Shown here: one piece after another, positions 5,457 to 5,757 of the stretch
How positions within the stretch are numbered: position 1 is the first letter of the stretch
Layout of the letters: every line of letters starts with the position of its first letter
NCBI GenBank assembly: GCA_963695875.1
Contig: CAVOID010000013.1
Location: 1 to 64,000, forward strand
Reading direction: 5' to 3'
Length of the DNA stretch: 64,000 nt
DNA from: an uncultured delta proteobacterium
GTDB lineage: Bacteria > Desulfobacterota > Syntrophia > Syntrophales > UBA2185
Translations under genes and position numbers: made by a program
Notes under the pieces: model-generated
What the model was told of the DNA's origin: nothing
What the model saw: only the letters and a program-made list of their open reading frames with translations
Database searches by the model: none

Positions 5457-5491
5457 TTTCTTTTCCTCCTAAGTTTAATTTTTTTTAAAAC

Positions 5492-5537
5492 AAAATAAAA
5501 AACCCACTGACCGCATTTTTTCTTCCGCCAGTGGGTT
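5492..5537 (-). terminator. Intrinsic terminator in the metY 5' leader (candidate attenuator terminator)
   Basis: mRNA AACCCACUG...CAGUGGGUU 9-bp stem followed by UUUUAUUUUG, ~35 nt before the metY start. Confidence 0.85.
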
Positions 5538-5570
5538 AATCTACTCATGATTATGATCATCTACAGATGA

Positions 5571-5699
5571 CTACATAAACGAATATCCCCCTTCCCGGAA
5601 GCGGTGCATTGTCATACTGCAACACATGACCATGCGGCACACGTGCGCATTCATACTTTCTTTAGGCATATGGCTTAATATGAAATAATTTATTTTCAT
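5571..5699 (-). CDS. Putative Met/Cys-rich attenuator leader peptide, 42 aa: MKINYFILSHMPKESMNAHVCRMVMCCSMTMHRFREGGYSFM
   Basis: Hand translation, ATG 5699 to TAG 5571; 8 Met and 3 Cys, 7 of them in codons 21-31; weak GAGAG RBS; lies between promoter and terminator upstream of metY-cysK. Confidence 0.8.
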   Translation of the reverse strand: MKINYFILSHMPKESMNAHVCRMVMCCSMTMHRFREGGYSFM

Positions 5700-5757
5700 A
5701 ATTTATTGCTCTCTGCGCACCACCGCAGATAACTTAACGATATTCTTCGAGTAATTA

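Follow-up and report, generated by a model that had tools for sequence, protein, structure and literature searches.

A candidate methionine/cysteine leader-peptide attenuator upstream of metY-cysK in an uncultured member of the Syntrophales

The metY-cysK leader

The 64,000-nucleotide (nt) stretch analysed here (the window; positions 1 to 64,000 of contig CAVOID010000013.1, assembly GCA_963695875.1) comes from an uncultured delta proteobacterium of the order Syntrophales. Its minus strand carries metY and cysK, which encode enzymes of methionine and cysteine synthesis. The element in question is the leader between their promoter and metY: it encodes a short open reading frame (ORF) rich in Cys and Met codons and ends in an intrinsic terminator. 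All features of the leader described below are on the minus strand.

The leader ORF (5571-5699) comprises 42 codons plus a TAG stop (ATG at 5699, TAG at 5573-5571) and reads MKINYFILSHMPKESMNAHVCRMVMCCSMTMHRFREGGYSFM; it contains 8 Met and 3 Cys residues. It sits between the conserved promoter, about 80 nt away, and metY. Codons 21-31 (5607-5639) form the putative regulatory cluster, C-R-M-V-M-C-C-S-M-T-M, in which seven of eleven residues are Cys or Met. When all small ORFs of 15-70 codons were counted in six frames of the 2.86-Mb genome, only two of 44,307 reached at least seven Cys/Met per eleven codons, and the leader ORF is one of these. Its Cys/Met density exceeds chance for its own genome.

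The leader ORF is followed by an intrinsic terminator (5491-5537), AACCCACUG.../...CAGUGGGUU plus a U-tract, with the hairpin itself at 5537-5501. A longer form of the hairpin, starting from GAGUAG (around 5546), has a folding energy of -21.3 kcal/mol, and in the full-length ensemble of the window RNA the terminator forms with P = 0.97. The metY ribosome-binding site (RBS) and start codon (5454-5470; AGGAGG at 5470-5465, ATG at 5456-5454) come next, with about 35 nt from U-tract to ATG. A promoter scan found no promoter-like site on the minus strand between the terminator and the metY ATG. As there is neither room nor a promoter-like site here, transcription of metY-cysK needs read-through of the terminator.

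The last eleven codons of the ORF hold the 5' strand of a predicted antiterminator (5574-5606; core CUUCCGGGAAGGGGG, 5601-5587). Its 3' strand (5521-5550) runs from the spacer through the 5' arm of the terminator into part of the loop and contains CGGAAG (5527-5522). The duplex that this strand can form with the terminator 5' arm and loop has an energy of -21.2 kcal/mol, compared with -14.6 +/- 3.1 kcal/mol for 500 shuffled sequences. A small hairpin, H3 (UCGUUUA / UAGAUGA, 5557-5582), lies across the leader stop codon and is nested inside the antiterminator according to RNAalifold.

Most of this had been described in the initial annotation, and a re-reading of the sequence agrees with it: the 42-codon minus-strand ORF at 5699-5571 with its 8 Met and 3 Cys; the seven sulfur amino acids in codons 21-31, at 5639-5607; the terminator after the ORF, with a stem that begins 33 nt past the stop and a hairpin plus U-tract at 5537-5491; the AGGAGG of metY at 5470-5465; and the complementarity of CACCGCUUCCG...GGGGG (5606-5587) with CGGAAG, with the CCC in the 5' arm of the terminator, and with GCGGU (5514-5510).

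The end of the ORF has a second peculiarity. A G-run resembling a Shine-Dalgarno (SD) sequence, GGGAAGGGGG (5596-5587), precedes the last sense codon, ATG (5576-5574), and the TAG stop; the whole (5571-5596) looks like a translation start followed at once by a stop. The G-run forms a duplex of -10.8 kcal/mol with the CCUCC motif, far stronger than that of the SD at the start of the leader ORF. A terminal ATG-stop is found in frame in 16 of 18 Cys/Met leaders from this and other genomes (it is out of frame in G094 and absent from G077b), with the ATG 6-10 nt 3' of a G-rich SD-like strand; energies range from -6.3 to -12.0 kcal/mol and are -7.8 or lower in 15 of the 16. Either RNA pairing has produced this arrangement as a side effect, or it may serve to dock a ribosome that hides the antiterminator.

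The 5' untranslated region (UTR) contains a GAATATC box (5739-5745) whose complement, the invariant GGATATTC, lies in the 3' end of the ORF. The two pair in full-length minimum free energy folds, and five of six close homologues could form the same pairing (judged by eye). The box is of low complexity and gives weak evidence for a pairing role.

Conservation in close relatives

The leader was searched for as DNA in 61 related genomes. Whole leaders were found in two relatives of the same family: G003 has two copies, and G006 has one full and one partial copy. An exact-pattern scan of genome contigs gave just four loci. A pattern scan of metagenome contigs gave five, of which two (L025 and L028) are new copies, one (L027) is a chance match and two duplicate those of G003. 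A covariance model of the leader (R1, described below) found no second copy in the bacterium's own genome at E <= 1.

The leader precedes metY-cysK in G003 and metY in L028, a short locus in which metY alone is visible. In G006, it precedes a gene for a binding protein of a sulfate ABC (ATP-binding cassette) transporter, followed by one for a transporter-permease-like protein (assigned by eye). The second G003 copy precedes a DUF2325 gene, and the L025 copy a 92-residue ORF.

Six close homologues have retained not only the ORF and its C(R/C)M.MCC.M core but also the terminator and the complementarity for the antiterminator. Their peptides share N.C(R/C)M.MCC.M and end in ...GGY.FM*. The 42-codon length and the frame are kept in G003, L025 and L028, and the DUF2325 copy of G003 has a 6-nt insertion within the cluster. 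Aligned Cys codons alternate between TGC and TGT.

Conservation falls into zones along the alignment: a near-invariant promoter and operator, a poorly conserved 5' UTR, a divergent ORF start, and a near-invariant 3' segment, TTCCGGGAAGGGGGATATTCGTTTATGTA, followed by the terminator. The first 19 codons of the ORF diverge by 37% per site and the frame is still open. In four equal-length ORFs, the substitutions in codons 2-19 are spread evenly over the three codon positions (39/39/41), and the codon differences in the N-terminal part comprise 69 non-synonymous and 7 synonymous changes. Given this even spread and the kept 42-codon frame, it is the frame and the Cys/Met codons that are kept, not the peptide. 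Such a pattern is a leader-peptide signature and speaks against a functional small protein: the peptide itself is not under selection, unlike the frame, the codons for Cys and Met and the 3' RNA.

A further variant is seen in sediment metagenome contigs from three runs. Here, 83 unrelated letters replace the 77 at 5600-5678, with flanks that are 97-99% identical. The replaced segment is the N-terminal and Cys/Met part of the ORF; the difference of +6 preserves the frame.

The paired regions have changed in a compensatory manner. In the 7-sequence alignment, 88.7% of cells in the antiterminator plus H3 are paired, compared with 37-53% when the partner strand is slid by 1-3 columns, and four pairs have changed on both sides; for H3 alone, 89.8% of cells are paired and two pairs have changed on both sides. 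Terminator pair 132:161 shows A-U to G-C changes (RNAalifold, close-homologue alignment). In L025, the leader has CUUUGGG facing CCCAAAG in the terminator, where the other copies have UUCCGGG and CCCGGAG; this case was recognised by eye and is one register off from the alignment columns. Conserved Met/Cys-rich ORFs with a terminator and covariation do therefore occur upstream of metY in relatives, which is what the initial annotation had proposed to look for.

In the partial copy of G006 (L022, on contig C27), just the final third of the ORF is present, together with the terminator, the RBS and some 30 nt of metY. Joined to this is a different 5' part; the resulting ORF, MKNKGPALVTSPKGGLLVAKRRFREGGYSFM (translated by eye), has no Cys/Met codons, and the copy precedes a 2-hydroxyacyl-CoA dehydratase gene homologous to the gene upstream of the leader in the window. 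L022 looks like a rearrangement scar.

Distribution across the order and phylum

The covariance model R1 was built from seven sequences and run on 151 genomes sampled from the order. It matched 28 places in 23 of the 151 genomes, and 24 of these places were read; the four left out are the window, two G006 copies and one reverse-strand duplicate. A Cys/Met-dense ORF lies closely 5' of the terminator in 12 of the 24 places, in 11 genomes (MKDHLALQRTIASTQGRREDAARLPMMMCCHMHTRRRKRGGSFM and MKEQSNRGSGCGGIMVMCGPMCCCNCRMEGSFM are examples). The rest consist of a weak case in G033, a place in G037 without such an ORF, two Ile-rich leaders, one His-rich ORF and seven plain terminators.

The genes behind the leaders are metY (nine scanned loci, Pfam Cys_Met_Meta_PP), homoserine O-acetyltransferase metX (three) and one radical-SAM protein gene; the one MetX tested scores above the cut-off of its NCBIfam equivalog. 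In seven genomes, the leader directly follows an Rrf2-family regulator gene.

The layout is regular among the 20 members of the leader family. At least five of eleven codons are Cys or Met in 18 of them. The distance from ORF stop to terminator stem is 21-37 nt in all 20, and the final 48 nt of the ORF can form a duplex with the 5' arm and loop of the terminator (-17 to -28 kcal/mol). The duplex beats 500 shuffles (p <= 0.05) in 14 of the 20; the z-score is below zero in every member (median -2.35). The ORF strand of the duplex is positioned 4-34 nt 5' of the stop, i.e. under a ribosome at the stop codon.

Across a sample of 151 genomes from the phylum, R1 matched four: one real case and three bare terminators. 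The real case is G295, from another order, in which an Rrf2 gene is followed by MNLLSVKPNSLSTKKCCCMDMRCPWEWGGLLMLN, a terminator and metY, in this order. The model is too narrow for gauging the spread of the leader more widely.

No Rfam 15 model matched the window leader or ten related loci at gathering score. At E <= 10, the region 5350-5950 gave merely terminator-like matches far below gathering. An S-adenosylmethionine (SAM) riboswitch, a T-box or another known Rfam family is ruled out by the lack of a model match; the initial annotation had named this search as a check, and nothing in it reassigns the leader. The sole Rfam match in the window is a thiamine pyrophosphate riboswitch at 43609-43699 on the plus strand (64.7 bits, gathering score 54.3).

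Promoter and putative Rrf2-type operator

The leader promoter (5783-5811) consists of TTGACA (5811-5806) and TATAAT (5793-5788) and is near-invariant in all six close homologues. The spacing between the two boxes is merely 12 nt; the canonical 17-nt spacing would put the -10 box at TATCTA (5788-5783). Owing to this spacing, the promoter scan missed the conserved promoter; it lists a non-conserved TTGACA-17-TATTGT at 5859-5831.

An imperfect inverted repeat, ATCTACTAATTCAATAGACATAGTAGT (5761-5787), covers the -10 and transcription start region and resembles an Rrf2-type operator. It is conserved in all leader promoters. The promoter and a variant of the box precede Rrf2-family genes in five other genomes (G008, G013, G017, G018 and G054), and a similar box is found on the promoters of those Rrf2 genes that precede the leader in other families. 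When the own genome was scanned with a pattern demanding TTGACA and a strict repeat, only the metY site was found.

The candidate trans factor is an Rrf2-family regulator gene at 23564-24001 on the minus strand (Pfam Rrf2), with its own promoter and operator at 24209-24153. The box in this promoter (24188-24153) resembles the metY box at 5787-5761. The protein is 85% identical to the Rrf2 regulators of the five genomes above, and its gene is followed by one resembling cysteine desulfurase (NifS/IscS-like, by eye). In NCBIfam, it scores above cut-off for rrf2_super; CymR is the best equivalog and IscR the next, both below cut-off. We infer from the shared box that an autoregulated Rrf2 repressor would bind at, and also gate, the metY-cysK promoter.

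A second Rrf2 gene in the window (12202-11768) follows a MOSC-like gene (by eye) and has no obvious promoter. Of the two, it is more closely related to the Rrf2 genes found ahead of the leader in other families.

Control of metY-cysK looks two-layered, with a putative Rrf2 operator acting at initiation and a putative attenuator acting in the leader. The initial annotation was correct in its statements about the sequence of this locus, but missed both the Rrf2-type operator and the broken reading frames of metY and cysK.

Downstream and upstream genes and the state of the assembly

Both metY (O-acetylhomoserine sulfhydrylase, 4153-5456, minus strand; Pfam Cys_Met_Meta_PP) and cysK (cysteine synthase, 3222-4146, minus strand; Pfam PALP) are interrupted in the assembly, metY running through three frames and cysK through two. 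The intact metY homologue in L028 scores above the TIGR01326 cut-off; the best NCBIfam match of cysK is cysK, below cut-off for what is a partial protein. Compared with the intact genes of G003, metY and cysK show about ten single-base insertions or deletions (indels) in 1.9 kb. The 2-hydroxyacyl-CoA dehydratase gene upstream of the leader is shortened to its last 86 codons.

The assembly (82.6% complete, 16 contigs) is rich in single-base indels, and several of the extra bases in the metY/cysK region are missing from sediment metagenome contigs. Judged by these contigs, the frame breaks are presumably assembly errors and the genes are not pseudogenes. An independent sediment contig spans 5421-5600 with two differences and no gap; indel errors of this kind consequently do not touch the 3' end of the ORF, the antiterminator or the terminator. 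No RNA run was found among the sequencing runs that match 3200-6200, and the four runs compared are DNA contigs of relatives, which confirm the sequence.

The window contains a second metY paralogue (minus strand; matched part 19661-18924, gene about 19661-18400), which shares 65-70% identity with the first type and is present in most genomes of the family. Here and in several family relatives, the gene immediately before it is another coding gene, nadA- or fdhD-like by eye. Neither a leader ORF nor a terminator was found in front of it in the window, or in front of its orthologues in ten family genomes; the leader therefore goes with one metY type only.

Proposed mechanism and alternative explanations

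The metY-cysK leader is most probably a ribosome-stalling (leader-peptide) transcription attenuator for sulfur amino acids. The sequence and its comparison with relatives show the ORF and its enrichment in Cys/Met codons, the terminator and the complementarity, as well as the conservation of all these and what kinds of genes follow. Four of the five defining features of leader-peptide attenuators that can be looked for in sequence are present: the ORF, the codon cluster, the terminator and the antiterminator. The trp/his-type architecture with Met/Cys specificity proposed in the initial annotation gains support from the homologues and from the order-wide occurrence of such leaders before metY and metX.

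Transcription would start near 5781 and the 42-codon ORF would be translated. If charged Cys-tRNA and/or Met-tRNA were scarce, the ribosome would stall at codons 21-29 (5639-5613), leaving 5606-5574 free. The freed strand would pair with the spacer and the terminator 5' arm (5550-5521); the hairpin would be blocked, and RNA polymerase would read into metY-cysK. If both tRNAs were charged, the ribosome would reach the stop at 5573-5571 and cover the antiterminator strand. The terminator (5537-5491) could then form, and transcription would end about 35 nt before the metY start. Initiation would also be gated by a CymR/IscR-like repressor of the Rrf2 family that binds at 5787-5761. The steps that we infer are that the ORF is translated, that ribosomes stall, that both Met and Cys elicit a response and that the repressor binds.

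Ribosome-masked folds agree in part with this sequence of events. The core antiterminator helix was scored in a transcript ending before the terminator 3' arm. With the ribosome A site at the Cys/Met codons 21-29, the helix forms with P = 0.78-0.88; with the ribosome at codon 31 or 42, P falls to 0.00 and 0.16, respectively. The check by ribosome footprint suggested in the initial annotation was thus borne out for the stalled state, in which the antiterminator forms, but the OFF switch is only partial.

A number of observations weigh against the attenuator reading. In the folds, the core helix already has P = 0.88 without any ribosome, and a stop-codon ribosome only halves it (P = 0.56); stalling at codon 31, the final Met in the cluster, would hide the antiterminator. 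Folding revealed no convincing anti-antiterminator of the 1:2 type, merely the weak hairpins H1 and H2 and a long-range GAAUAUC/GAUAUUC helix. As modelled, folding gives the ON state and part of the OFF state, and does not give termination of untranslated transcripts. In the window, the SD at the start of the leader ORF reaches a weak -2.9 kcal/mol, compared with a moderate -5.0 to -5.9 kcal/mol in G003, G006 and L028, and the strong SD-like run before the terminal ATG-stop hints at another or additional use by ribosomes. The duplex test gave p > 0.05 in 6 of 20 members, and the covariation counts come from seven related sequences with few events. The sequence does not tell Met from Cys as the sensed amino acid. 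If the frame breaks in metY and cysK were real, the leader would control pseudogenes. Finally, G033 (L042) and G037 (L004/L040) keep the promoter/operator, terminator and metY and have no clear Cys/Met ORF; the middle of about 250 nt is unrelated to the leader, matches no Rfam model in G037, and may be a different sensor on the same chassis.

A bolder version of the attenuator reading is unlikely. It would make these leaders an undescribed, order-wide class of Cys+Met dual-tRNA attenuators, hard-wired to an Rrf2 repressor, in which the SD-like/ATG-stop site is a second ribosome sensor that masks the antiterminator; initiator Met-tRNA and the elongation by Met- and Cys-tRNA would then both feed a single terminator decision.

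The terminal site could also act instead of stalling, or beside it: a ribosome docked at 5596-5571 would mask the antiterminator, and occupancy or initiator tRNA would set read-through. That 16 of 18 leaders end in a strong SD-like run plus ATG-stop, and that a 17th has it out of frame, speaks for such docking, as do the weak SDs at several true ORF starts and the lack of an OFF state in folds without a ribosome. However, the G-run is required anyway for pairing with the CCC of the terminator arm, and the ATG is part of the H3 stem and of the extended antiterminator, so RNA pairing can explain why this ATG is conserved. Docking also leaves the Cys/Met cluster and the long open frame upstream of it unexplained, and is quite improbable as the mode of control.

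It is very improbable that the leader is a ligand- or protein-binding RNA, i.e. an undescribed riboswitch or a protein target working on the same terminator, with the ORF incidental. The 3' third of the ORF is near-invariant as DNA with mostly non-synonymous changes, and G037 has retained the promoter, terminator and metY around a 250-nt middle that differs and contains no Cys/Met ORF; both would fit such an RNA. Against it stand the lack of an Rfam match and the divergence of the 5' two thirds of the leader (26-37% per site), where only weak hairpins are conserved. Moreover, members too diverged for sequence alignment still have a start codon, an open frame and, equally far from the terminator, a Cys/Met cluster, and indels come in multiples of three.

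A functional Cys/Met-rich peptide is barely plausible. The peptide would be metal- or redox-active, or the precursor of a ribosomally synthesised and post-translationally modified peptide; it would have its own terminator, and metY would be expressed by incidental read-through. The Cys-rich core and the C-terminal G-G-Y-x-F-M are common to the close copies. There is, however, no third-position bias, 69 of the 76 differing N-terminal codons are non-synonymous, and the C-terminus is conserved as DNA and not as peptide (S/L/P, E/G and G/R changes occur). In addition, the ORF is always placed in a 5' leader ahead of Met/Cys genes, no separate promoter serves the next gene, and no maturation genes are nearby.

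Least credible is regulation by the Rrf2 repressor alone, with the hairpin as a leaky terminator or insulator and no role for the Cys/Met ORF: the operator is indeed the most widely conserved part and is present also where no leader ORF is seen, but this leaves unexplained the conserved ORF, the fixed terminator spacing, the antiterminator complementarity, the compensatory changes and the placement of the leader between an Rrf2 gene and metY or metX in seven genomes.

Other leader peptides in the lineage

A crude scan of the own genome, aimed at small ORFs that contain amino-acid runs and precede a terminator, gave further leaders of this general type. Two precede genes for the acetolactate synthase large subunit, each with a terminator in between, and read MTHHKLSNILIVAVVVVLVLRGTAARFL and ...NVVTIAIIIGIIIPFRKGAG. 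They are a Val/Leu/Ile-rich leader (L063, G000 C3:163368-163282, minus strand) and an Ile-rich leader (L064, G000 C3:160845-160756, minus strand); the synthase gene behind L064 is frame-broken. The end of L064, TTCCGGAAAGGGG, is similar to the antiterminator strand in the Met/Cys leader. Such ilv-type leader peptides in the same genome speak for the attenuator reading of the metY leader.

A Phe-rich ORF (...IFFTFFAFF...; L065, G000 C8:207430-207513, plus strand) is followed by two terminator-like hairpins. It precedes a gene for a solute-binding protein with merely a weak match to branched-chain amino-acid transporters.

The Ile-rich leaders matched by R1 in other genomes, MHTTAQAIISIIIISLTIGGLAVV (L039, G097) and MNVLRAIIISRIIIRFPRGGLAVE (L041, G100), precede a terminator and citramalate synthase; R1 matched them because their 3' part is similar. 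The His-rich ORF, MRFRFHHHIHYY... (L056, G042 C67), and its terminator precede a gene for a CehA/McbA-type metallohydrolase (75.9 bits, cut-off 80).

Comparison with known systems

The trp, his, thr, leu, phe and ilv leaders of Proteobacteria are the classical leader-peptide transcription attenuators. Met and Cys genes are usually taught as being under SAM riboswitches, T-boxes or the repressors MetJ, CymR and McbR; for metY-type genes, SAM riboswitches (S-box and others) and Met T-boxes are the usual RNA controls. CymR and IscR are Rrf2-family repressors of cysteine and iron-sulfur (Fe-S) metabolism.

The accessible text of PMC3766115 lists His, Leu, Thr, Trp, Ile/Val and Phe as attenuator specificities; SAM riboswitches and Met T-boxes are mentioned in the accessible parts of PMC2965389 and PMC3766115. 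In Actinobacteria, candidate Cys leader peptides have been described upstream of cys/cbs operons, with no terminator hairpins and with Rho suggested (Seliverstov et al. 2005, PMC1262725); for methionine operons, the same paper reports that no RNA element was found. The mycobacterial 'Cys ribulon', as outlined in the accessible text of Canestrari et al. (bioRxiv 10.1101/834739), comprises leaderless short ORFs encoding polycysteine, and its control is translational: the stalled ribosome opens a structure that hides the RBS of the next gene (bioRxiv 10.1101/834739). No published Met or Met/Cys leader-peptide terminator attenuator was found in the full-text literature, a scope that does not extend to subscription journals and supplements. 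No description of an Rrf2-type repressor and a leader-peptide attenuator on one operon was found in the literature covered.

If the attenuator reading is true, a Met/Cys attenuator with a real terminator would fill a gap in the list of amino-acid specificities, and AUG could act as a regulatory hungry codon despite its role as start codon. One leader would integrate two amino acids. It would explain the tuning of sulfur assimilation in uncultured syntrophs that have no SAM riboswitches on these genes, and the pairing with an Rrf2 operator would link the sensing of charged tRNA to cysteine or Fe-S status at one operon. At about 300 nt from promoter to metY RBS, the leader would also be a compact part for Met/Cys-responsive reporters.

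In position and output, the leader is like SAM riboswitches and T-boxes, acting at Met/Cys genes by premature termination; unlike in these, the proposed sensor is an ORF and not an aptamer or a tRNA-binding leader. The likeness to CymR/IscR systems consists of a palindromic operator on the promoters of Cys/Met genes and of the regulator, and of a regulator gene that adjoins a cysteine-desulfurase-like gene (by eye). In contrast to these systems, the window proteins score below the equivalog cut-offs.

With the Cys leaders of Actinobacteria, as far as the accessible text describes them, the metY leader shares a short ORF with Cys codons near its stop, upstream of cysteine genes; it differs in having a covarying terminator and antiterminator. 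The polycysteine ORFs of mycobacteria, as the accessible text has them, are likewise short upstream ORFs with Cys codons, at cysteine-metabolism operons and at several loci. In contrast to these, the metY leader ORF begins about 80 nt from its promoter, Met is as prominent as Cys, and a terminator is followed by a free AGGAGG.

The closest parallel is with the classical attenuators, to which no sequence or Rfam relationship was found. As in these, a short ORF in the 5' leader contains codons for the end-product amino acids, a terminator stands before the first biosynthetic gene, and the antiterminator has its 5' strand within the final part of the ORF, where a stop-codon ribosome could cover it. 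Unlike these, the metY leader has codons for two amino acids, Met and Cys, interleaved in one cluster; it lacks a clear 1:2 anti-antiterminator, and carries an SD-like/ATG-stop site and an Rrf2 operator. The Met/Cys specificity and the combination with an Rrf2 operator are new; the architecture itself is that of a classical attenuator.

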